From the NCBI GenBank assembly GCA_029882995.1, contig JAOUJV010000001.1:11668-75667 (forward strand): 64,000 bases of DNA. The letters are read 5' to 3'. The notes below the pieces were generated by a model, which was not told the origin of the DNA, made no database searches, and worked only from the letters and a program-made list of their open reading frames with translations. Below, piece after piece: positions 1 to 63,544 of this stretch. The stretch is from Gammaproteobacteria bacterium. Lineage in GTDB: Bacteria > Pseudomonadota > Gammaproteobacteria > DAOVJZ01. Position numbers and translations under genes: made by a program. Every line of letters starts with the position of its first letter. The stretch's first letter is position 1.

Positions 1-162
1 AATCAGTCTTATCCCCCGTTCGTCCTGAGTTTTATCGAAGGACGGACGGGTATCTCATCCAGTTAACACTTGTCAGGAAATAAATACCCGTCATTCCGGC
101 TTATGAACCGGAATCTCGCACAGATTTCTTTGTTGTGCCAATTAAAAACAGGAATCTTATAA

Positions 163-217
163 CTTAAAATCCCTCGGTGGCAACACCGTGCCGGTTCAAA
201 TCCGGCTCTAGGCACCA
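163..217 (+). tRNA. tRNA-Leu(UAA)-like 3' portion (anticodon loop cttaaaa, long variable arm, T-arm, acceptor 3' strand, CCA); the matching 5' half is not in the window
   Basis: Sequence cttaaaatccctcggtggcaacaccgtgccggttcaaatccggctctaggcacca has a TAA anticodon loop, a class II variable stem-loop, a GGTTCAAATCC T-arm and CCA. The 5' acceptor strand (gcctaga) is not found in nt 1-162. Upstream nt 1-160 contain stable hairpins. Confidence 0.5.
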
Positions 218-423
218 TTTAAAACCAATGAGTTACGATTGGTTTTTCAATTCTAAATATCCCCTAATAAGCACTAAAAATTTCTATGTAGGCCTATAGT
301 AGTCAGGTAGAATAAAAAATATCTTGCTTTGTCATATTCTCTATATACACCCTTTATTTATGGTAATCTCAATTAGAATTTAATAAACCACACTCATTCT
401 GTTTTTAAAGCAAGATTTTATAT

Positions 424-3309
424 ATGAACAATAAGCACTTAAATAGAATCACTATTTCCCTAGTGAAATCCAAAAAAGCAAGAAATTTACTCAGAGGGAT
501 GATAGGCGAAACTGAACATTACAAAGTAAAAAATACGCTTAGAAAAATAAAAAATAATTGTTCATCTATCGAATATAAGAAGTCAATAGAGGTCATTAGG
601 GCGGCGGAATTATTTGAACACAACTCTGTTTCCAGAGATTTTAATAAAGTATGCCCAAATACCTTGCCTGATTTAATGAGATTTACTGAAAATGAAATCA
701 TAGACAAAATCAACTCCCAAGAGGATCGAATAAACAAATTGCTTCACTTATATCGAGACTTGTTAGTTTCGATACAGGAAATGAAGATTCGCGATTCATT
801 AAAATTATGCCGATCAATTATTGAGCATAAAGGTGTTTCATGCTGCTTAATTAGAATTCTGTTTTATATTAAAAATCACGCGGACGATTATGATGATTAC
901 GATGATGCGCAAGAAGGTGTGGAAGATATTTTTCGCAAAATAGAGATGAGTAACATTGGTTATTTAGATAACGCAATAAAGGAGTTAAGTAATTCAAGGA
1001 CGGATTATTTTAACATATGTAAAAAAATAAATGGAGATCAAAACAAAACCCCTTTGAATCTTATTGCAAGAGATTTTATTTCTCACGTCACAAGCGATGA
1101 GATCGTTTTCTTGAACACATTAAACGCATACTATACGTTTTCATTGCTAGACTCTTTTCTTTATATTTCTAGTGTAAATAGATTAAAGTTACCCTTAACA
1201 AAGGGTGTGAAAAACATCAAATCAAGCTTGATGGATTCGTTTTATTCGCTAAGCAATATTAAAGTTAATACTAAATTGTATTTGAATGAATATTATGATG
1301 ATTTGGATATCAATTTATTCAGAGAAAGTTTCTTATTGATAGAGCTTGACGAGCTATTTAAATATAAAACCATTCACGGAGCCCTTTATAACACTAGTGA
1401 AAAAAAGGAAGATGTAAGATTACCCGTTGAAAAGCGATTATTGAGTGATTATTTTGAGAGTATTAAGTCGCTATCTGACCTGCGCAATCATGAAAACGGG
1501 GGTAACGGAATCAGCATGGATAAATACGATTCGGAAAAGTGTAGTCACTTCGAAAACTCGAGCGCTTTATTGTACTACATAGAAAAAAATGACGCTAATA
1601 TTTCTGGTGAGGAGAAAATATTTATAGAGTTAATGTCATACACTAGAGATATCGGATATACCTGCCCAAGCCATTACATTAAGAAAATTCAACACAATGC
1701 AGATAGTGATGAGCTTAGGTTAGTTCTGGCGTGTTTGATATCTATAAAAGACAAAAGCCAGATCGCCGATCATGAATTAAGAAGGGTAATGCAAAAATTA
1801 GCCACATCAAAGTTCGATTCAAAGATTAAATATCTTGTTAGGTATCTTTATGATATCTCCCCCTCCGTAACTCACCACTTGATGCAAGTGTGTGATGAAA
1901 CATTTCTGAGTAAGCTTTTTCATTTAACAGAAAAGCCAAACAAGGCAATTGAAGACAGGGCCGACATGCTAGAATGGTATGGGGAACAAATCAAAGATCT
2001 CTCCTACATTGAGAGAGCCAAAAACCTAAGAATTGATGTTCAAATAAATAAAGAAAAAGGAATGATTGACGACTCAAGGATTTATGTTGACCCCCTTAAG
2101 TTTACTCAGTGGATTAATGATAACATCCTCAATGATATTACTCTTCTTCTGGAGGCAAAAGAAAATAAAAACGAATTCACTGCGCAACCTCTTGACTGGA
2201 GAAAAGTACAAAACGGAATATCGAACGATGAGCAAATAGCCTCATTATTATTAAAGTGCTATTCGGAATTTTGTAACAACAAACTTTTTGGAATAGCTTC
2301 ATATCTTGGTCGGCGCATACGCCATGGTACATTTAAAGGGACAGCATTAAAGGAAGTAAAGGACTTTTCTTCAAACAAAAAATATGAGGATATTTTCAAT
2401 GACCGTGATCTTTCGGATTGTTATAATGACTGGTTAAAATGTTACGAGAACATGTTGGAGGAATTAAAGAAATCTTATTTGCATATAAAAAGCAAAAAAA
2501 AGCCACTAGGCCTGATTCATTCCAATATAGGCACCACCTCAAAAAATATAATTGCAAATCATATGCTTCATGATATTTTGAAATCATATAATAAAAACGG
2601 AACCTCCTTGGAGGTGCCGTACCTTGTAACAGAATATTGCTGGAGATTTATTGAGGAAGATTTAGCGAATATCAGAAAGCGTCTTATGGAGTATAAGTCA
2701 AAACATGCTGTGTTTGGATTCAGACTTAATTATTCAAGACTGCTAAAAAGAAAGCATATTAACGAATTCTGCCAAGAATTGAATTCTGTAACAGCTGAAA
2801 AATTTAGAACAATATCTTCTTGGTTTAATAAGCCCTCTATTGCATCACCTTCAGCCAATCTCACCTTATTATTTAAGGCAGTAATATCTGAGATAAAAGG
2901 ATTTTTTACACTATTTGAGCCTACAATCATACACAAGGAAAGTGATTTTAATATTAGTGGCGGCCTTTATTTTGTTATATATGATGCTTTATATATATTG
3001 ATTTATAATGCCGCAAAATATGGCAAAGAGAATAGTGAGCTTGAATTCAAGGTTATACCCCATAGTGAACACCAAGTGATTAATATTTCAATAACGTCTG
3101 AAGCAAAAAATAGTAAAAGTTTAGCTGAATCTAAGCGTTTGATAAATGCGGCCTTAAACGCTGATTTTGAAAACGCCCACATAGAAGAGGGTAAAAGCGG
3201 AATAAAGAAATTAAGAAGAATGGCGAATGATCAATATATTAGCAATGTGAGATATACTTTCCCTTCTAACAAAATAACTGCCTCATTTGACTTTAGCGTG
3301 GAATTTTAG
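424..3309 (+). CDS. Large cytoplasmic sensor protein with C-terminal histidine-kinase-like ATPase domain (N-box-like IYNAAKYG); Detocs DtcA-like
   Basis: 961 aa ORF with no TM segments and AT-rich codon usage. The C-terminus has HATPase_c-like motifs. Its stop lies 2 nt before a receiver-only gene. Confidence 0.6.
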   Translation: MNNKHLNRITISLVKSKKARNLLRGMIGETEHYKVKNTLRKIKNNCSSIEYKKSIEVIRAAELFEHNSVSRDFNKVCPNTLPDLMRFTENEIIDKINSQEDRINKLLHLYRDLLVSIQEMKIRDSLKLCRSIIEHKGVSCCLIRILFYIKNHADDYDDYDDAQEGVEDIFRKIEMSNIGYLDNAIKELSNSRTDYFNICKKINGDQNKTPLNLIARDFISHVTSDEIVFLNTLNAYYTFSLLDSFLYISSVNRLKLPLTKGVKNIKSSLMDSFYSLSNIKVNTKLYLNEYYDDLDINLFRESFLLIELDELFKYKTIHGALYNTSEKKEDVRLPVEKRLLSDYFESIKSLSDLRNHENGGNGISMDKYDSEKCSHFENSSALLYYIEKNDANISGEEKIFIELMSYTRDIGYTCPSHYIKKIQHNADSDELRLVLACLISIKDKSQIADHELRRVMQKLATSKFDSKIKYLVRYLYDISPSVTHHLMQVCDETFLSKLFHLTEKPNKAIEDRADMLEWYGEQIKDLSYIERAKNLRIDVQINKEKGMIDDSRIYVDPLKFTQWINDNILNDITLLLEAKENKNEFTAQPLDWRKVQNGISNDEQIASLLLKCYSEFCNNKLFGIASYLGRRIRHGTFKGTALKEVKDFSSNKKYEDIFNDRDLSDCYNDWLKCYENMLEELKKSYLHIKSKKKPLGLIHSNIGTTSKNIIANHMLHDILKSYNKNGTSLEVPYLVTEYCWRFIEEDLANIRKRLMEYKSKHAVFGFRLNYSRLLKRKHINEFCQELNSVTAEKFRTISSWFNKPSIASPSANLTLLFKAVISEIKGFFTLFEPTIIHKESDFNISGGLYFVIYDALYILIYNAAKYGKENSELEFKVIPHSEHQVINISITSEAKNSKSLAESKRLINAALNADFENAHIEEGKSGIKKLRRMANDQYISNVRYTFPSNKITASFDFSVEF

Positions 3310-3311
3310 AT

Positions 3312-3758
3312 ATGAATATACTTGTTGTTGAAGATGATTCGTTTAAATTTTCAAAAATAGAGACTCTTATTGAAAACACTTTGGGTAAAGTGAAAATAAC
3401 AAGGTTCGATAATATTCATGACACTGTTATTTATTTCGAGTCCAACATCCCGGACAAAATAATTTTGGATATGTCACTACCTAGTCATGCAGCCAAAGTG
3501 GGCGAGGGAAGCCCCTTGTCAATGCCTGCTGGAGGGATTGAAATTATACTTGAGTTAAAAAGTCTAAACATGATAGATATACCGATTCTAATACTAACCC
3601 AATACCCTGAAATTGAAATTGAAAATGAATACTATTCTATAGACGAGTCTGGGATTGAAATTAAAAATATTTACGGCATAAATAATCTGGCCGTTGTTCT
3701 TTATGAGAATGATTCATCTGACTGGAAGGATGAAGCTGTTGATTTTTTGAGGTTATAA
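3312..3758 (+). CDS. Stand-alone receiver (REC) domain protein; Detocs DtcB-like buffer
   Basis: 148 aa. N-terminus ILVVEDD and phospho-acceptor context ILDMSLP are typical of CheY-like receivers. There is no output domain. Confidence 0.6.
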   Translation: MNILVVEDDSFKFSKIETLIENTLGKVKITRFDNIHDTVIYFESNIPDKIILDMSLPSHAAKVGEGSPLSMPAGGIEIILELKSLNMIDIPILILTQYPEIEIENEYYSIDESGIEIKNIYGINNLAVVLYENDSSDWKDEAVDFLRL

Positions 3759-4928
3759 ATGAATATTTTATTAATTGAAGATCAAGAAAATAAAATCACT
3801 CTGGTTGAAGAGTTGATACGTGACAATGTTGAAGGCGATCAGTGTGTAATAATAAAAGCGAAATGTTTGGAGCAAGCGAGAAGAGAGATAATAGGAAAAT
3901 CCTTTGATCTTATTATTTTTGATATCTACCTCCCTTTGACGCCCGAGACTAACTCTGAAGTTGTTGATATATCGTTAGACATTATTAACGAATTTTCACA
4001 GAGCGCCAATAACTACCAAGCTGAAACTATAGCAATAACACAATACGATATTGAAGATATCGACAATATGGCCCTTTTTAATCAAGCAGGAGTTCCTGTT
4101 GTCCATTTTTCAGAGGAAGATGAAAAATGGAAAGACCCCCTTAGATTAAAGATAAAAAAAATCACTGATAGAGTGAAGTATGATTTTTTAATTTTTTGCG
4201 CTTTAAGCAAAGAGCGTTTAGCATTTTCAAATACAAATGCAGAAATGGGAGTGTTGAGAACAATGTATGGCCTTAACTGCCAAGATATAAAAATTGGAGG
4301 CTGCAATGGATTATGTATCACTCCGAACAATATGGGTCTCATTAATATGGCTATTTCAGCCTCAAAAGCAATAGAACACTTTCAACCAAAGATCGTTTCC
4401 ATGAGCGGAATTTGTGCCGGAGTTGAAGGAGAGGCAAATTTATTGGACGTAATCATTGGTGATCTTTGCTGGGAATATCAGACAGGAAAATTCAAAGATA
4501 ATGAATTTAAGCAAGAACCATATCAATCACCGATTGACGGCCGTATTAAAGTAGAGCTTGAGCAACTATGTGAGTCTGCTGAGATGCTGAACAATATTAA
4601 GAGAGGACTTTTTGAAACGGAGTTAAAAGACTCCAAGGTGTTTCTAGGTCCAATATCATCTGGTTCCGCCGTAATAGCCGATGCGAAAAAGATGGCAGAA
4701 ATAGGATTGCAACATCGAAAAATGGCCGGCCTTGAAATGGAAATGTATTCTTTATATGAGGCAGCAAGACAATCATTGTGTAGGCCTTTGTATTTTGGTG
4801 CTAAGACTGTTGTCGATTTAGGTAATACTATAAAAGGGGACACCCTTCATTCTACAGGTTCAACCCTTTCTGCAAGGCTAGTAACACATTATTTAGAATC
4901 TAAGTTGCCTGTTTTAAATATGGATTAA
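3759..4928 (+). CDS. Receiver domain fused to PNP_UDP_1 (purine nucleoside phosphorylase / MTA-nucleosidase-like) domain; Detocs DtcC-like effector
   Basis: 389 aa. N-terminus has ILLIEDQ ... DLIIFDIYLP (REC). The C-terminal half has GICAGVEGEANLLDVIIGD and AGLEMEMYSLYEAA, resembling the Pfs/PNP catalytic (v)EME motif. The start codon abuts the previous stop (taa-atg). Confidence 0.6.
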   Translation: MNILLIEDQENKITLVEELIRDNVEGDQCVIIKAKCLEQARREIIGKSFDLIIFDIYLPLTPETNSEVVDISLDIINEFSQSANNYQAETIAITQYDIEDIDNMALFNQAGVPVVHFSEEDEKWKDPLRLKIKKITDRVKYDFLIFCALSKERLAFSNTNAEMGVLRTMYGLNCQDIKIGGCNGLCITPNNMGLINMAISASKAIEHFQPKIVSMSGICAGVEGEANLLDVIIGDLCWEYQTGKFKDNEFKQEPYQSPIDGRIKVELEQLCESAEMLNNIKRGLFETELKDSKVFLGPISSGSAVIADAKKMAEIGLQHRKMAGLEMEMYSLYEAARQSLCRPLYFGAKTVVDLGNTIKGDTLHSTGSTLSARLVTHYLESKLPVLNMD

Positions 4929-4973
4929 CGAATATTTGAGCCCAGAGTAAACCTCGAATTTCATTAACCAAAC

Positions 4974-5432
4974 TCAACCAAACTTCTTATCCGCACTCAA
5001 TCCTGCCAGTCTTGTATGCAGTTCTTCATACATTGCCATTAACTGTTGTCCTATTTCCTGTTCGGACGTGCCAAGCAGTTTGTTCATTTCATAAAATTCA
5101 ACGGTGTCTTTGCGAAAGGATTTCATGAGCGGTGAGTCCCTGTTTTCGTGGTATAGCTTCATGCGTTCACGCACTTCTTCAAACGGCATCTCTGGTGGGC
5201 CAATATAGATCAATTCGCCGTAGGCCATTGCACGACTGCCGTTGCCTTCGACATTTGGCCCAATACGCTTGCCTTCGGCTCCGGGCATGAATTTTGACTG
5301 ACTGCTGATGGTGATTGTGTCCGTGTGCGGCAATTTCTCACCGCTGGTGTGGTGTGATTTGTCCGGCGGTGTTTGCGGATTGGTGACCGGATCGTAGGCG
5401 GCAGGTGGTTTTATGGCATTTATGCTCATCAA
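4974..5432 (-). CDS. hypothetical protein
   Basis: 152 aa ORF with normal GC content and no recognizable motif. Confidence 0.4.
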   Translation of the reverse strand: MMSINAIKPPAAYDPVTNPQTPPDKSHHTSGEKLPHTDTITISSQSKFMPGAEGKRIGPNVEGNGSRAMAYGELIYIGPPEMPFEEVRERMKLYHENRDSPLMKSFRKDTVEFYEMNKLLGTSEQEIGQQLMAMYEELHTRLAGLSADKKFG

Positions 5433-5487
5433 ATATCCCTCTGTGGCGGGTTATTTGTATTAAGCATTATTTATGCTAATAAGACTA

Positions 5488-5531
5488 AAAGACCTCAGAG
5501 CAATCGTTTTTAATCACTCTGAGGTCTTTGG
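5488..5531 (-). terminator. Rho-independent terminator hairpin (aaagacctcagag ... ctctgaggtcttt)
   Basis: Perfect 13 bp inverted repeat immediately downstream of the minus-strand ORF 5540-5749. Confidence 0.5.
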
Positions 5532-5539
5532 TATGGCGG

Positions 5540-5749
5540 TTAGTTCATGCGGTGCAAGCCCGGCAAACGGATGAGGTAGGTTGTCCAGTAGGGAATGCTT
5601 GCATTGCCGTCCACCGAACGCAGCATCAGACCTTCGCGTTCTCCATGGACTTCCCAAACATTCTCGTTTTCGTCGATCCAGTGTTCATGTATATTCGCTT
5701 CGCCATTGGTAAGTACTTCAGCAATACTGCCTTTAATAGAATGTGACAT
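5540..5749 (-). CDS. small hypothetical protein
   Basis: 69 aa ORF followed by the terminator hairpin. Confidence 0.35.
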   Translation of the reverse strand: MSHSIKGSIAEVLTNGEANIHEHWIDENENVWEVHGEREGLMLRSVDGNASIPYWTTYLIRLPGLHRMN

Positions 5750-6003
5750 GTCGTTTACCTCCCACAGTAAATTTCAATAGCATTCTGATTTGTTCCCACT
5801 CTTCCAGTATAGATCACATCATTTGTCATTCGTGAGCTATGTTGTGCTAATAACGGCGTATTTTATGAGGTTATATTGCCGGAAAAGAAGGCGGGGTTAT
5901 GTTCGGGCTTTCCGGGTTTTTATCTGGGCATTCTGTGTTTCAGGTGCGTATTTTGTCTGTAAAGTGAGCTATAAACCCTGCTTGAAAAGGGTATACTAGC
6001 CAG

Positions 6004-6633
6004 ATGAAAAATACATTCTTATTCAAGCTGTTTCTCGTGTTTGTTTCGTATGCCCTGGTGTTTTCTGCCCATGGAAATTCCGATATCGGGCGGTTGAATC
6101 AGTTGTTGTCCGGCATTACCACGCTGGAATCGACTTTCAAGCAGCTTTTGCTGGATGAGAAAGGGGAAACCATTCAGGAATCGTCCGGCATATTTCAGTT
6201 ACAGCGCCCGGGCAAGTTTCGCTGGGATTACACCAAGCCTTATGAACAGCTCATTATCGCTGATGGCCGCAAGCTGTGGGTTTATGACGCCGATCTGGAA
6301 CAGGTGACAGTCAAGAAACAGGAAACCGCATTGGGCAATACACCGGCGCTGTTGTTAACGAGCAGTCGTGATGTGGAAAAGGATTTTAATGTGCAAGGCA
6401 AGGGCATACAGGAAGGGCTGGAGTGGTTTGAACTAAAACCCAAAGACAAGGAAAGCAGTTTTATTAAAATCAATCTTGCCTTTGGTCAAAACAAGCTCAA
6501 GCAAATGGAGCTGATAGACGGCTTTGGGCAAACCACCCGATTAACGTTTGATGGGATTGTGGTTAATAAAAGTATCGCTTCCGGCCAGTTTGTTTTTAAT
6601 CCACCACGCGGTGTTGACGTTATTAAAGACTAA
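6004..6633 (+). CDS. lolA: Outer-membrane lipoprotein carrier protein LolA
   Basis: 209 aa with a signal peptide and LolA-like sequence. It lies in the conserved lolA-rarA-serS order. Confidence 0.8.
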   Translation: MKNTFLFKLFLVFVSYALVFSAHGNSDIGRLNQLLSGITTLESTFKQLLLDEKGETIQESSGIFQLQRPGKFRWDYTKPYEQLIIADGRKLWVYDADLEQVTVKKQETALGNTPALLLTSSRDVEKDFNVQGKGIQEGLEWFELKPKDKESSFIKINLAFGQNKLKQMELIDGFGQTTRLTFDGIVVNKSIASGQFVFNPPRGVDVIKD

Positions 6634-38605: not shown

Positions 38606-38836
38606 ACTGCACCAATAATGCTCCTCCTGTTTGCCGAAAAATCCCCTTCTCACTACTAATTTAATACATACAGTATTTACTCAATAAAAACAGCAGGTTA
38701 TAAAATACTTAGAGCTGTTCAAAATCTTATTTCCTGTTTTTCCCGCACATTTTCTAATAGTTGTCTATAAAATTCCGATAGAAATACGTGGGTATATAAA
38801 AATGATCATTATTTGTGTGGAGAAGGACATCACTGC

Positions 38837-41800
38837 ATGGTTTCAGGCTTGCTCAATTTTGTAAAAAGGCGTGATATTAGCAAATATCATGTTGTCATCA
38901 TGGTGACAACAGTTTTGCTTGTGAGTCTTTACTGGAAGTACAACCACAACATAGAGGTCCTAAAAGAAAAATTCATTGCGCTAAGCACCAGCGAAAATCA
39001 TCAGACTGTTGATTCTATACGACATCAGTTTCGTGTGATTGAGCAGGGGCTCAGAACTATTTCACGTCTCCCTGAAATAAAAAGGATTTCACATCATAAC
39101 CCTCATCTAAGCAAAGAAACAACAATCACAGTTAATGAAATATACAGCTCGTTAACTGAGAATGTTGCAGTTTCAGAAATATACATAACTCTTGTAAATA
39201 ATAAACTCAAAAAGGGTGAATTAGAAAGACCCATTCTTGAATTCGACAATAATATTCTTGAAAATGAACATAATAATGATAACGAAGATGAAGAATACAA
39301 AGTTATAAATAGCCATATATTAACCATAAAATCCAGATTCAGTAGTTATGATATGTATGAGATACCGGATCAGGTATTGTTAATAAGCGAGGAAGTTGAA
39401 GTATGCGATGTTTCCGAAAAAGGAGTGGCAATCGATGACGAGAAAAAAAAGGGCATAGTATTGTCAAAACCTGTTTTTAATGAACAAGGCAATGTAATAG
39501 GGGTTATCTCGGGAGTGTTACGTACTGATGTAATCAGGGGAATGTTATCAGACACAGATAGCTATATAACAAACGAAAAAAACGACTTTATTATTTCTCG
39601 ATCATCGAAGATAAACGAGGAAATAAAAAATAAATCAACCGACGTTCTTTCTGGTAATAAAAATACAGTTTACTACGAGAAAATAAAAATCCCGGTAAAC
39701 TCGCTTGGTTCAGACTGGTATTTTATATCAAGCCACCCTGATAATTATTTCTGGGATCAGATATACGTAAAGCATGAGAATTTATTTTTTGCTTATTCAT
39801 CATTTGTAATAATTCTGTTAAGTGGTTTTGCCATGATTTACTTACACAGAAGAGAAACAATAAGAAGGGCGGAAGAGGAAACGCTTCGTCAAGCATCACA
39901 CTTAAGCGCAGTATTCAATACGGTTCTTGAATCAATAATAACAATTGATGAAAAGGGTACAATTATAGATTGCAATCCTGCGATTGAGTTTTTATCAGGC
40001 TATATGGTTGAGGAGCTAAAAGGGTGTAATGTAAACATGCTGATGCCTCAATCAATTGCCAAACATCATGACTTATATCTTAAGAATTATATAAAGACTG
40101 GCGTTCCTGGAATAATTGGTGTTGGAAGAGAAGTTGAACTACGTCATAAAGATGGTCACCTTGTCCCCGTCGACCTTTCAGTGACCGAGTTTAAAAAAGG
40201 TGATACTAATTATTTTGTCGGCACCCTCAAAGACATATCCGTACAAAAAGAAATGATCGGCATCGTAGAAAAAGCCCGTGATACTGCGCTCGAATCTTCC
40301 AGAATTAAATCTGAATTCTTGTCCAACATGAGCCATGAATTACGCACACCGATGAATGGCATCATTGGCTTTATACAGCTTCTGGAAGATACAAAGCTCG
40401 ATGATGAGCAGAAGGCCTATCTGGATACAATTCTGGATTCAGCAAATGGCCTGATGACAATCATTAATGATGTACTGGATTTTACTCGCCTAGGTGCCGG
40501 GAAGATACGTATAGAAAACACTGATTTTAATTTAAGAATGACCGTCGACAGCCTTGTAGACTTTTTTAAATATCAGACTGAGTGCAGCAGAATAAAACTA
40601 CAGGGACAAATATCATCAAGAGTGCCCATGCAGCTTGTTGGTCCGCCGGGAAGATTGCGACAGATACTGGTGAATTTCATCAGTAACGCATTTAAATACA
40701 CTGAGCAGGGAGAGATAAATATCAGAGTAAATATGCTGGAAGAGCATGATGATTATGTTTTATTAATCACTGAAGTCGAGGATACAGGCGTTGGTATTAC
40801 AGAAGAAAATCAGAAGCTCATTTTTGATTCATTCAGGCAGGTTGACAGCTCTATAACCAGGCAACATCAGGGGCTTGGGCTTGGGTTGGCAATTACAAAA
40901 TCACTGGTTGAAATGATGGGGGGGGAAATCGGGGTTAAAAGCGAACCGGGAAAAGGAAGTACATTTTGGTTTACTATGCAACTAGGGAAGGCAGATCTGC
41001 CTTCATATAACAATGAATCCATATCATTGCTAAATGGTAAGTCGATTCTTGTTATTGACGATGATGCTGAATCGGCAGAATCATTACAATACAAACTTGG
41101 TACCTGTCATGCAATCACAGAAACAGTTTTTTCTCCTCTAGATGCCATTCAATTACTACGCGACAAATCCATTACCGAACACCCGTTTGACATGATTATT
41201 ATTGACGTTAAATCAGGATTGATAGATTGGCGCGATATTGTAACTACGATTAATAAAGATGAACTAATCAAGCCTGTTCGAAAGGTAGTGCTGACCTCTT
41301 CCGGGCAAAGAGGTTTTGGTGATCTTGCAAAACAAATTGGTGTTATGGCTTATATTACAAAACCGGTCGATGATAATGGCTTATTGACTGCCTTGAGTAT
41401 GGTGCTTAACAAGGAGCCGGATGACACGAGTTCGCTGATAACTAAATACACGATAAGTGAATATTGTGCGAAGCAATCTGGCCGCATACTGGTTGTTGAT
41501 GACAATATCACCTCGCAGAAAGAGGTGACACATGTGCTTTTAACAGATGGATTACGTTCAGATGTTGCTTGTTCAGATGCGGATGCGCTATTGTCACTTG
41601 ATCATATTGAATACAGCATGATAATCATTAATTCCGCATCGGGACAGGTCAATATTGAGGAATTTGTTTCTAATGTTCGAATTCACGACAAAGTCAGTAA
41701 CATTTCACACCCCATTATTGCACTGGTCGATAAAAATGACAGCATTATGACAGAACGGTGTATGAAGGCCGGGGTGGATGATGTCCTGATGTACCCCTTT

Positions 41801-41854
41801 AATGCAGAGCAGTTCAATGCAAAAATGCTAAATTTAATGAGCAAGGCAAGCTGA
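38837..41854 (+). CDS. Hybrid sensor histidine kinase (periplasmic/TM sensor, PAS, HisKA, HATPase, two receiver domains)
   Basis: H-box [20 protein letters not shown] boxes, PAS ([16 protein letters not shown]), and two C-terminal REC-like domains. AT-rich. The 38837 ATG has a GGAGAAGG RBS; 38813 is an alternative start. Confidence 0.75.
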
Positions 41855-62330: not shown

Positions 62331-62549
62331 CTTTTGCCCTGACTCATCGGAGATGAGTAGGGTTGCCTTGACCCGGAAGGGTAAGGTACTCATAACGAAC
62401 CTCGAAGAGGTTCTATGAGCTGTCGCTCAATTACTCCCCCATACCAACCCTTCCAGCAAACATTGTCTACTGCATTCAATCAAATGTTAATGTAAACTAC
62501 GCCCGTCATCTGCAGCCCGGGTGGCGAAATTGGTAGACGCAAGGGACTT

Positions 62550-63242
62550 AAACATTTTGAGCACCCGTTTCGGAAACGATCGGTGTGAATGGAGTCAAAT
62601 TCGGGGAAACCTCAGCATTTATGATAGTGGCAATCCCGAGCTAAGTTCTGGATTTATTTTTACCCCTGTAAGTAGGGGTGAGGGCGTGGCAATTAGGACA
62701 TAGAAGACGAAGATTTTTTAAATCGTTATCTTTATTGTTGCCATTGATGTGGTCAAGCTCAAGCGGAATTGGCTTATTAAGCCATGAAGTACCATAACAA
62801 CATGCACATTTATGCTTAAATATCCCTTCTTTCAAGAGACGGTTCTTAAGCTTGAATGATTGAATGGCTAGTTCGTTATTAAGGTATTTTTCCAAAGGAA
62901 CTTTGGCAGGGAGATTCTTGCCTTTATTCCATGCTTGCCCCCTGAAATGGGATATATCTAATTCAAAGTGATTTATCGCTTTTTTGAGGATACTGTAATT
63001 GCCTCCGTAAGGAGATACATTGAGCTTTAATAATACTTGCCTAAGGGATGTTGAATTTTGTACAGCATTCTGAAGGGCTGTTTCAGTATATTTATAAAGC
63101 TTCATATGGATACTCCTTTATCCAGAAAAAGTGTAGAGACTTGACGGCTCCTGCCTAAGTTATGTGATATAGCATAATACGGTAAAGAGAAAGTCCAGAC
63201 CACAAACGTAGGAATACGGCAGTGAAAACTGTAGCGGGTAAG
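62550..63242 (+). mobile_element. Putative group I intron in tRNA-Leu(UAA) carrying an antisense HNH endonuclease ORF
   Basis: Insertion after U34 as in cyanobacterial/plastid trnL and Azoarcus tRNA introns. Candidate internal guide GAGTC (62592-62596) pairs with the 5' exon end GACUU with a terminal U-G wobble. The intron ends in G (63242). The structured GC-rich ends flank an AT-rich ORF. Confidence 0.5.
62641..63105 (-). CDS. HNH homing-endonuclease-like protein
   Basis: 154 aa with ELDHINGNNKDNDLKNLRLLCPNCH (HNH motif with a Cys zinc knuckle). Located inside the tRNA-Leu intervening sequence, antisense to the tRNA. Confidence 0.7.
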   Translation of the reverse strand: MKLYKYTETALQNAVQNSTSLRQVLLKLNVSPYGGNYSILKKAINHFELDISHFRGQAWNKGKNLPAKVPLEKYLNNELAIQSFKLKNRLLKEGIFKHKCACCYGTSWLNKPIPLELDHINGNNKDNDLKNLRLLCPNCHALTPTYRGKNKSRT

Positions 63243-63544
63243 AAAATCCCTCGGATGAATAATCCGTGCCGGTTCGACTCCGGCCCCGGGCACCATCTCT
63301 TCTTAAAACTCCACGATTAAGCCATTCCTGCTACAGTATTTTTTCGAATGGTAATTTGGCTTAAAACGTGTGAAACATGCAAATTTAGGCTTGGTCATGG
63401 CCATGTTATAACTACCACACAAAATACCATGCAATATAACGGGTTTACCCAACCAAAATAGTAGGTTATTATATACCCATATATTATTGCTGACAGTGGG
63501 TCAGCATATGATTTTGGTATATGAGATAACAAGGGGACAAGATT

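Follow-up and report, generated by a model that had tools for sequence, protein, structure and literature searches.

Detocs and related systems

Detocs was described in Vibrio alginolyticus UCD-32C (Rousset et al. 2023, bioRxiv 10.1101/2023.01.24.525353, later Cell), where a helical sensor with an atypical histidine kinase (DtcA), a receiver-only protein (DtcB) and a receiver-PNP protein (DtcC) of about 977, 149 and 387 aa are encoded in this order. In E. coli, this reference system confers resistance to several phages: it aborts infection through ATP/dATP nucleosidase activity, and needs its His, its Asp and its PNP domain to do so. Mutation of H645 in its kinase (VaDtcA) abolished defence, and loss of the DtcB buffer, as by mutation of its Asp, made the system toxic to the cell. 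In about 80% of Detocs systems the effector is a PNP domain of the defensive clade with a catalytic Asp (D353), and the MacSyFinder rule for the system asks for adjacent dtcA, dtcB and dtcC with at most one foreign gene in between (10.1101/2023.01.24.525353).

The second validated system, Detocs-hydrolase of Enterobacter cloacae JD6301, follows the same logic of kinase, buffer receiver and receiver-effector, but carries a transmembrane alpha/beta hydrolase as effector where the locus reported here has a PNP domain. Cap17, an ATP nucleosidase associated with CBASS, is activated through a cyclic-nucleotide-sensing domain and not through a phospho-receiver.

Three adjacent genes match the Detocs models

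The window, which is the whole stretch of 64,000 nt analysed here, belongs to an uncultured marine-type gammaproteobacterium, to which Sedimenticolaceae and bivalve symbionts are most closely related (72% RarA identity). On its + strand lie three co-directional ORFs, dtcA (424..3309, 961 aa), dtcB (3312..3758, 148 aa) and dtcC (3759..4928, 389 aa), separated by gaps of 2 and 0 nt. This is the layout given by an earlier sequence-only reading, and the two peptide motifs it had quoted, GICAGVEGE and LEMEMYSLYEAA, were both located in the translations. All three proteins lack hydrophobic segments of transmembrane grade and are therefore cytoplasmic, as had been claimed for the 961-aa protein.

The same reading had proposed a Detocs-like cassette, to be checked against Pfam and PADLOC. 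Each gene matched its own PADLOC model of PDC-M60, the system that DefenseFinder names Detocs: dtcA matched PDC-M60A (E 2.7e-22, residues 537-948), dtcB PDC-M60B (E 1.6e-20) and dtcC PDC-M60C over its full length (E 7.5e-67). Judged by profile similarity, three ordered matches to the three models of one defence system cannot be chance. The Pfam search found Response_reg in DtcB and PNP_UDP_1 in DtcC, and no HATPase_c match in DtcA. Gene order, protein sizes and domain content agree with those of V. alginolyticus, and each of H645, D58, D353 and the acceptor Asp of DtcB has a conserved counterpart, H634 very probably being that of H645. The present system differs from the reference in its uncultured host and in its setting, alone between ftsK and lolA with a foreign tRNA-Leu half at its edge, and it encodes a much diverged DtcA.

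Taken with the validated system as a guide, these results make it highly likely that the locus is a complete, apparently functional Detocs of the V. alginolyticus PNP-effector type, horizontally acquired as a solitary ftsK-lolA islet. Detocs is already described and this locus is a further, ordinary member; it leaves the known function of Detocs unchanged, and it adds to the family's hosts an uncultured gammaproteobacterium with relatives among sulfur oxidisers and symbionts.

DtcB is a lone receiver and DtcC a receiver-PNP fusion

DtcB matched Pfam Response_reg (E 5e-7, 30.3 bits, cut-off 30.2) and is 45% identical to validated VaDtcB. The equivalents of CheY D13, D57 and T87 are conserved, and D53 (codon 3468-3470), aligned with CheY D57, is the acceptor of this stand-alone receiver, for which a role as phosphate buffer is proposed. 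In DtcC, a receiver (residues ~1-135, acceptor D55, codon 3921-3923) is followed by a predicted PNP/ATP-nucleosidase domain (residues ~140-389) with catalytic D353 (codon 4815-4817). DtcC matched PNP_UDP_1 (E 1.9e-7, 31.2 bits, cut-off 25.1), Response_reg below threshold, and the PADLOC model of PN-superfamily effectors (1.1e-10). Over its full length it is 53% identical to validated VaDtcC, with D55 opposite D58 and D353 opposite D353. Defensive-clade PNP effectors such as Cap17 would be expected to share its effector chemistry; DtcC resembles E. coli Cap17 locally (25% across 76 aa, E 4e-5), and the relationship is limited to the PNP domain.

Membership of the PNP_UDP_1 superfamily and weak similarity to MtnN and DeoD models could also suggest that this is a common two-component system of regulation or metabolism, with a PNP/MTA-nucleosidase under receiver control that tunes nucleoside salvage, and the homolog locus of Cupriavidus does have metabolic neighbours. 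However, DtcC reached 29 bits against the 169 of the MtnN equivalog cut-off (PRK05584) and 14.9 against 232 for deoD in NCBIfam, and as a housekeeping MtnN/DeoD it was rejected. Its best matches were the defence models and the ATP nucleosidase to which it is 53% identical, no homolog locus examined has salvage genes in its operon, and related genomes are without the AT-rich inserted cassette. The salvage reading is thus largely refuted, and we regard it as the least probable of the explanations considered, with hardly any weight left. As a separate observation, the placement of the Cupriavidus homolog among metabolic genes counts against the main defence reading.

The N-terminal region of DtcA belongs to a Vibrio-type subfamily

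The N-terminal region of DtcA (424..2193, residues ~1-590) is all-helical and is presumed, by analogy with the reference system, to be the phage-sensing module. The structure of DtcA was modelled with AF2 (pLDDT 85.3, pTM 0.77). It had been suggested that this region is a novel sensor, which did not hold: it is colinear with the N-terminus of validated VaDtcA (28% identity, E 1e-43), 876 family clusters match, mostly end to end, and the region is covered by the precomputed Pfam family PF27260 Y4jQ. Vibrio homologs are 37-40% identical to DtcA across 99% of its length. No similarity to the N-terminus of E. cloacae JD6301 DtcA was detectable (BLASTP E 3), which fits the fact that the PADLOC A model spans just residues 537-948. 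The region is specific to the Vibrio-type subfamily, and a sensor common to the V. alginolyticus type and not detectably to the E. cloacae type raises questions on phage sensing. Among the papers searched, none newer on DtcA mechanism or structure was found.

DtcA has a kinase fold with a distant histidine

Behind the N-terminal region lies a helical bundle (2209..2841, + strand, residues 596-806) that holds H634 (codon 2323-2325, motif FGIASYLGRRIRHGT). This residue, within SYLGRRIRHGT, is the sole invariant His among 35 DtcA homologs. Downstream of it follows a DHp-like hairpin without His (helices 731-761 and 770-799, motif YCWRxIEEDL), and then the C-terminal catalytic ATP-binding (CA) domain of Bergerat fold (2851..3297, residues 810-958), with N862 as the N-box Asn and a G2-like motif, E922-G-x-S925-G926-I-K-K929-L. 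The G1 box (DxGxG) is missing. H634 very probably corresponds to VaDtcA H645. VaDtcA was compared over residues 1-399, so the equivalence runs through a Vibrio homolog that aligns with these residues gaplessly and in register and has a His at residue 645.

The kinase domain was resolved by structure prediction alone, as a CA domain of Bergerat fold that follows a helical hairpin. By sequence, it was detected neither by Pfam (E <= 1), NCBIfam and PHROGs nor by a profile search of the PDB, and an hhalign comparison with the canonical kinase encoded in the window gave E 0.14. The histidine-kinase-type ATPase C-terminus that had been proposed was thus confirmed by predicted fold and not by sequence. 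That DtcA is about 28-40% identical to reference family members, with a kinase domain unrecognised by sequence models and lacking a G1 box, counts against the main reading.

Canonical kinases such as the window's hybrid kinase (38813-41854) share with DtcA a Bergerat-fold CA domain after a helical hairpin, an N-box Asn and, as would be expected for DtcA by analogy, phosphotransfer to a receiver Asp. Unlike them, DtcA has no G1 box and no membrane segments, and its acceptor His is placed some 110 residues farther upstream. The hybrid kinase matched HisKA (3e-24) and HATPase_c (1e-27), and DtcA matched neither. The distance from H634 to the N-box is 228 residues, compared with about 110 in canonical kinases, and from acceptor His to the G1 position about 259, compared with 149. 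Because the His is 228 residues from the N-box, autophosphorylation geometry is not simply transferable from canonical kinases, a further point against the main reading. The sequence-only reading had seen no obvious H-box and held that the phosphotransfer route may be atypical; there is indeed no HisKA motif and the position of the His is unusual, but an invariant His does exist in H634. Without a Pfam match or DxGxG, and with its His so distant, DtcA was rejected as a member of the HisKA/HATPase_c families (PF00512 and PF02518). It has the fold of a histidine kinase and would act as one, yet stands outside those sequence families, and a public 'hypothetical protein' can become DtcA by annotation.

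A single invariant His unusually distant from a G1-less ATPase domain is the picture that emerges for the DtcA family. We tentatively suggest, as a possibility that we would not favour at present, that DtcA proteins form a distinct class of histidine kinase family-wide, with a separate, conserved helical His module (SYLGRRIRHGT) about 110 residues upstream of a His-less DHp-like hairpin (YCWRxIEEDL) and a CA domain lacking G1; on the same tentative reading, the layout would be nearer to the split His-carrier and kinase of CheA than to an EnvZ-type DHp. If this were true, N-terminal phage sensing could gate the access of the His module to the ATP site.

Proposed mechanism

The steps of the mechanism are transferred from the reference system, and every residue they require is present here. 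With its large helical N-terminal region, cytoplasmic DtcA would detect a phage cue, and its C-terminal Bergerat-fold ATPase domain would phosphorylate the invariant His634. The phosphoryl group would then pass to Asp55 of the DtcC receiver, which in its phosphorylated form would activate the fused PNP-family domain (catalytic Asp353). [quoted passage not shown] DtcB, which has Asp53 and no output domain, may compete for phosphate and so soak up leaky kinase activity, averting autoimmunity.

The cassette is an acquired islet between ftsK and lolA

The cassette lies between ftsK and lolA, within an insertion of about 6 kb that is missing from about 60 related genomes. Its GC content is 0.34, compared with 0.435 for window positions 5001-64000, and no other low-GC stretch of the window is as long. 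It stands as a solitary islet, outside any multi-system defence island, which counts against the main reading. An AT-rich, horizontally acquired islet next to a 3' fragment of tRNA-Leu had been proposed; base composition and the comparison with relatives support such an acquisition.

At the left edge of the insertion, positions 161..217 (+ strand) correspond to the 3' half of tRNA-Leu(UAA), 56-57 nt from the anticodon loop through CCA, and within window 1-423 this fragment alone had database matches. ARAGORN and Rfam (gathering and E-value thresholds) made no call for it, as expected of a half-molecule, so it was identified by aligning it with real tRNA-Leu genes: it matches an intact tRNA-Leu(taa) (locus L056) at 48/56 positions, which agrees with what had been read from the sequence. 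Against the host's own tRNA-Leu(UAA) 3' exon there are about 11 differences in 57 positions. No second copy was found in window 1-6100, and no tRNA or tRNA-Leu-like fragment was found near the homologous cassettes at five other loci. The foreign fragment is probably the scar of an integrative element, carried in from a donor, and no functional gene.

The leader of dtcA (218..423, + strand) is AT-rich (GC 0.27) and is presumed to hold the promoter. A search of this leader found no strong sigma-70 consensus, and no clear Shine-Dalgarno sequence was seen upstream of dtcA. Together with the loss of mobility genes, which leaves just a tRNA half-scar, this could suit a decaying relic that was acquired and is now non-functional or unexpressed. 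Such decay seems very unlikely given that the three ORFs are intact and full-length relative to homologs, that all invariant family residues are kept, and that the locus is near-identical across four independent metagenome contigs (0-4 mismatches in 6.1 kb).

A tRNA-associated integrative island was also considered and rejected. Such an island would have its target tRNA intact at one end, the 3' part of this tRNA directly repeated at the other, and an integrase gene; here the tRNA-Leu(UAA) 3' half stands alone, with no intact tRNA between ftsK and lolA, no repeat copy in window 1-6100 and no integrase ORF. Looking for att-like direct repeats at the borders of the insertion gave only short repeats at chance level, and no mobility genes remain at the cassette, which makes it a clean natural case of a defence cassette without mobility genes in an otherwise conserved core-gene spacer.

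Homologs of the cassette were found within a conjugative element, with TraU/TraH/TraG genes flanking them. Homologs are carried by 32 plasmids, of which 14 are conjugative, and by no phages. In addition, the toxicity of reference Detocs without its DtcB buffer resembles toxin-antitoxin behaviour (10.1101/2023.01.24.525353). The present cassette, though of the Detocs family, might then be mainly an abortive or addiction module that benefits its carrier element, for instance by killing segregants that lose it, by shutting out competing plasmids or by responding when conjugative DNA enters, using the same His-Asp relay to deplete ATP. We consider this improbable: reference Detocs gives E. coli phage protection dependent on His, Asp and PNP (10.1101/2023.01.24.525353), and the present cassette, chromosomal between core genes and without mobility genes, has no element to stabilise. 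Phage defence is kept as the preferred reading.

The insertion also contains two orphan ORFs on the - strand, at 4974-5432 (152 aa) and 5540-5749 (69 aa), with a GC content of about 0.46 and separated by a hairpin with an 18-bp stem at 5488-5529. Neither matched Pfam, PADLOC, NCBIfam or PHROG, and both are missing from the ftsK-lolA spacer of the roughly 60 relatives. A metagenome search with the 152-aa ORF gave a single homolog, on a 1.8 kb contig in a different and unrelated context, and found no empty-site variant. The two ORFs (4974..5749) are candidate passengers of the insertion and at most putative parts of the system. The ftsK-lolA spacer is apparently not a general insertion hotspot, since among about 60 relatives compared just one had it enlarged; in place of a defence gene, that spacer carries an HD-GYP-like signalling gene.

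A Detocs cassette of known kind

As read from the sequence, three plus-strand genes form the cassette: dtcA (424-3309, 961 aa), dtcB (3312-3758, 148 aa) and dtcC (3759-4928, 389 aa), separated by 2 and 0 nt, in exact agreement with the sequence-only reading. The GC content of the cassette was 0.34 versus 0.435 for the remaining window, and the 64 kb contain no longer stretch of low GC. Transmembrane-grade hydrophobic segments numbered zero in DtcA, DtcB and DtcC, against six such windows in a control, the window's own canonical membrane-bound hybrid histidine kinase (38813-41854, plus strand, dCache-PAS-HisKA-HATPase_c-REC).

In PADLOC-DB, DtcA, DtcB and DtcC matched the PDC-M60 models A, B and C in order as one candidate system, with E-values of 2.7e-22, 1.6e-20 and 7.5e-67, respectively; DtcC also matched a CBASS-type 'PN-superfamily' effector model (1.1e-10). 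The supplementary tables of PMC11811056 give the same protein triplets the names 'Detocs' (DefenseFinder) and 'PDC-M60' (PADLOC). Three Pfam domains had been proposed as a check of the initial Detocs call. Two were found, Response_reg in DtcB, barely above gathering, and PNP_UDP_1 in DtcC, above gathering and accompanied by a sub-threshold receiver match; the HATPase_c part of the check failed, with no kinase match in DtcA.

The reference Detocs operon comes from Vibrio alginolyticus UCD-32C (bioRxiv 10.1101/2023.01.24.525353; VaDtcA within NZ_LJTF01000009.1, 143,697-148,244), and its proteins (VaDtcA, VaDtcB and VaDtcC) were compared as printed in Table S1 of that report. DtcC showed 53% identity to VaDtcC from end to end, D55 pairing with D58 and D353 with D353 in the alignment, and DtcB showed 45% identity to VaDtcB, its acceptor being D53. 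Residues 5-384 of DtcA aligned colinearly with 19-397 of VaDtcA (E 1e-43, 28% identity). Since receiver and PNP matches exist and no homolog locus was found inside a nucleoside-salvage operon, the assignment of the cassette to Detocs stands on sequence comparison. The kind is already known and was recognized correctly from raw sequence, and a specialist would not be surprised by it.

Homolog loci and alternative roles

The A-B-C architecture was kept in the homologs, with proteins of about 950-985, 148-155 and 384-399 aa. A Colwellia locus adjoins a SEFIR/TIR protein, and one from V. alginolyticus adjoins DO-GTPase2/GASH/PNP and SLATT genes. At the latter locus (L088, 1-3537 and 14672-15115) the Detocs homolog lies less than 7 kb from the three-gene DO-GTPase2/GASH/PNP_UDP_1 set, with SLATT_1 adjacent, which places a second PNP-family effector system in the same island.

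A Cupriavidus locus sits amid metabolic genes and an AAA_13 ATPase, as a metabolic two-component system might; the DtcC PNP domain scored far under the housekeeping MtnN and DeoD cut-offs (29 vs 169 bits), and such a metabolic role is extremely improbable for the cassette. The Thiomicrospira locus lies inside a conjugative element, between TraU/TraH/TraG_N and TraG-D_C, and among sequenced plasmids 32, including 14 conjugative ones, carried a DtcA homolog, as did no sequenced phage. A role for the module in the service of a mobile element, and not in phage defence, is unlikely, though it is the least improbable of the alternatives weighed here.

A distant, probable acceptor histidine in DtcA

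No kinase was recognized in DtcA by Pfam, NCBIfam, PHROGs or a profile search covering every PDB sequence. The hybrid kinase at 38813-41854, which served as internal control for kinase motifs only, gave HisKA at 3e-24 and HATPase_c at 1e-27, and hhalign of DtcA against it returned only a weak N-box alignment (E 0.14). Database search yielded 38 DtcA homologs, most of them full length (about 950-985 aa), which carry the precomputed Pfam family PF27260 'Y4jQ'; the local Pfam copy is older than this family. The public Pfam copy, NCBIfam and PHROGs leave DtcA unnamed, and the plasmid homologs are annotated 'hypothetical protein'. The Vibrio-type DtcA subfamily is probably under-called by current annotation pipelines.

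The sole invariant histidine among 35 sequences was H634, within FGIASYLGRRIRHGT. Its Vibrio-branch equivalent falls at residues 644-648, and at residue 645 in P0035, a Vibrio homolog of DtcA that aligned with VaDtcA residues 1-399 without gaps and in register at 67% identity. From this register over VaDtcA residues 1-399, the H645A mutation of the reference very probably struck the counterpart of H634. From H634 to the invariant N-box Asn862 there are 228 residues, a spacing near-constant across members. In the canonical kinase the histidine stands 149 residues before the G1 box, whereas about 259 residues separate H634 from the equivalent position in DtcA, from which a DxGxG G1 box is absent. 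The hairpin directly before the C-terminal ATP-binding (CA) domain (helices 731-761 and 770-799) contains a conserved YCWRxIEEDL and no conserved histidine, and a separate model of residues 596-806 (pLDDT 90) matched generic helical bundles only. The His-to-ATPase geometry of DtcA is unusual, and the unusual features are family-wide, not specific to this locus. The earlier suspicion of an atypical phosphotransfer route, drawn from the lack of an obvious HisKA H-box, holds only in part: a HisKA motif is absent, yet H634 is invariant, at an unusual distance from the ATPase domain.

The N-terminal region had been proposed as a possibly novel phage-sensing module. The validated VaDtcA has a homologous N-terminus, so the region is not new to this locus. 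Profile searching across 1.84 billion representative proteins returned 876 family clusters at E <= 1e-3, 239 of them at <= 1e-30, and most matched end to end (950-1000 aa). In contrast, the N-terminus of a second validated DtcA, from E. cloacae, had no detectable similarity to that of DtcA here, and the PADLOC A model spans only residues 537-948, the C-terminal 40% of the protein; both observations indicate that the N-terminal region is subfamily-specific. The 'TPR' label in bioRxiv 10.1101/2023.01.24.525353 was not confirmed here. The family-wide DtcA architecture, together with a clean insertion site, is of modest added value.

A model of cassette function

[quoted passage not shown] The cassette has the parts, folds and residues of such a system, and the reference mechanism is the best-supported model for it, with activities carried over from a system whose B and C proteins are 45-53% identical. 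A phage cue would act on the helical sensor of DtcA, the CA domain would then phosphorylate H634, and the phosphate would pass to DtcC D55. [quoted passage not shown] With H634, D53, D55 and D353 all present, it is very unlikely that the cassette is a dead relic.

Insertion between ftsK and lolA

DtcA was 100% identical to a protein annotated 'hypothetical protein' in a gammaproteobacterial MAG at NCBI, and longer metagenome contigs carried the same locus with 0-4 mismatches over 6.1 kb, in the gene order clpA-infA-ate-aat-...-trxB-ald-ftsK-[cassette]-lolA-rarA-crcB-DUF190-serS-cysG. The closest reference genomes were Sedimenticola, lucinid-clam symbionts and other Sedimenticolaceae (RarA identity 72%). 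The distance from ftsK to lolA was 20-270 bp in about 60 related genomes versus about 6.0 kb here, and in none of these relatives did this region contain the cassette or either of two small ORFs seen here on the minus strand, so the segment is an insertion. No integrase or transposase gene lies within it and the neighbours are core genes; the cassette is thus an isolated islet, not a defence island.

The two minus-strand ORFs (4974-5749; 152 and 69 aa; GC about 0.46) lie between dtcC and lolA, separated by a hairpin with an 18-bp stem (5488-5529). They had no family match in four libraries, and the sole homolog found (58% identity) was on a short contig in an unrelated context. In one related MAG (L011, 5465-7399) the spacer is enlarged to about 2 kb and encodes a 575-aa protein, which by eye resembles an HD-GYP phosphodiesterase whose C-terminus is hemerythrin-like; the ftsK-lolA spacer can therefore take other cargo, there not a defence gene.

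At the left edge, the tRNA-Leu-like 3' fragment noticed earlier (161-217, plus strand) matched the last 56 nt of a genuine tRNA-Leu(UAA) at 48/56 positions, starting in the anticodon loop and ending with CCA. A tRNA half beginning in the anticodon loop is a typical footprint of integrase-mediated recombination. The fragment differs from the host's own tRNA-Leu(UAA) at about 11/57 positions, the opposite end of the insertion lacks a repeat copy, and the spacer holds no intact tRNA. In the simplest reading, the fragment is a scar from a donor with the cassette at a tRNA-Leu site.

Split host tRNA-Leu and other features of the window

The host tRNA-Leu(UAA) gene (62515-63295, plus strand) follows tRNA-Gly(GCC) and tRNA-Cys(GCA). 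A group I intron of 693 nt, ending in G, separates its U34 from A35. Joined together, the exons (62515-62549 and 63243-63295) give a perfect 88-nt tRNA-Leu(taa) fold. Rfam Intron_gpI aligned P1-P6 well at E 3e-6 and 32 bits, under the gathering score of 50, and the gene was missed entirely by ARAGORN and the Rfam gathering search. Interrupted tRNA-Leu-TAA genes in Beggiatoa and Thiomargarita (PMC4853749) provide a precedent. Inside the intron, a minus-strand gene (62641-63105) encodes a 154-aa phage-type HNH endonuclease (phrog_10822, 7.9e-48; Pfam HNH/HNH_3 matches sub-threshold), presumably a homing endonuclease, in the unusual orientation antisense to the ribozyme. In the hybrid kinase gene at 38813-41854, which adjoins rhodanese and 2OG-Fe(II) oxygenase genes, GC falls locally to 0.34 (39-40 kb).
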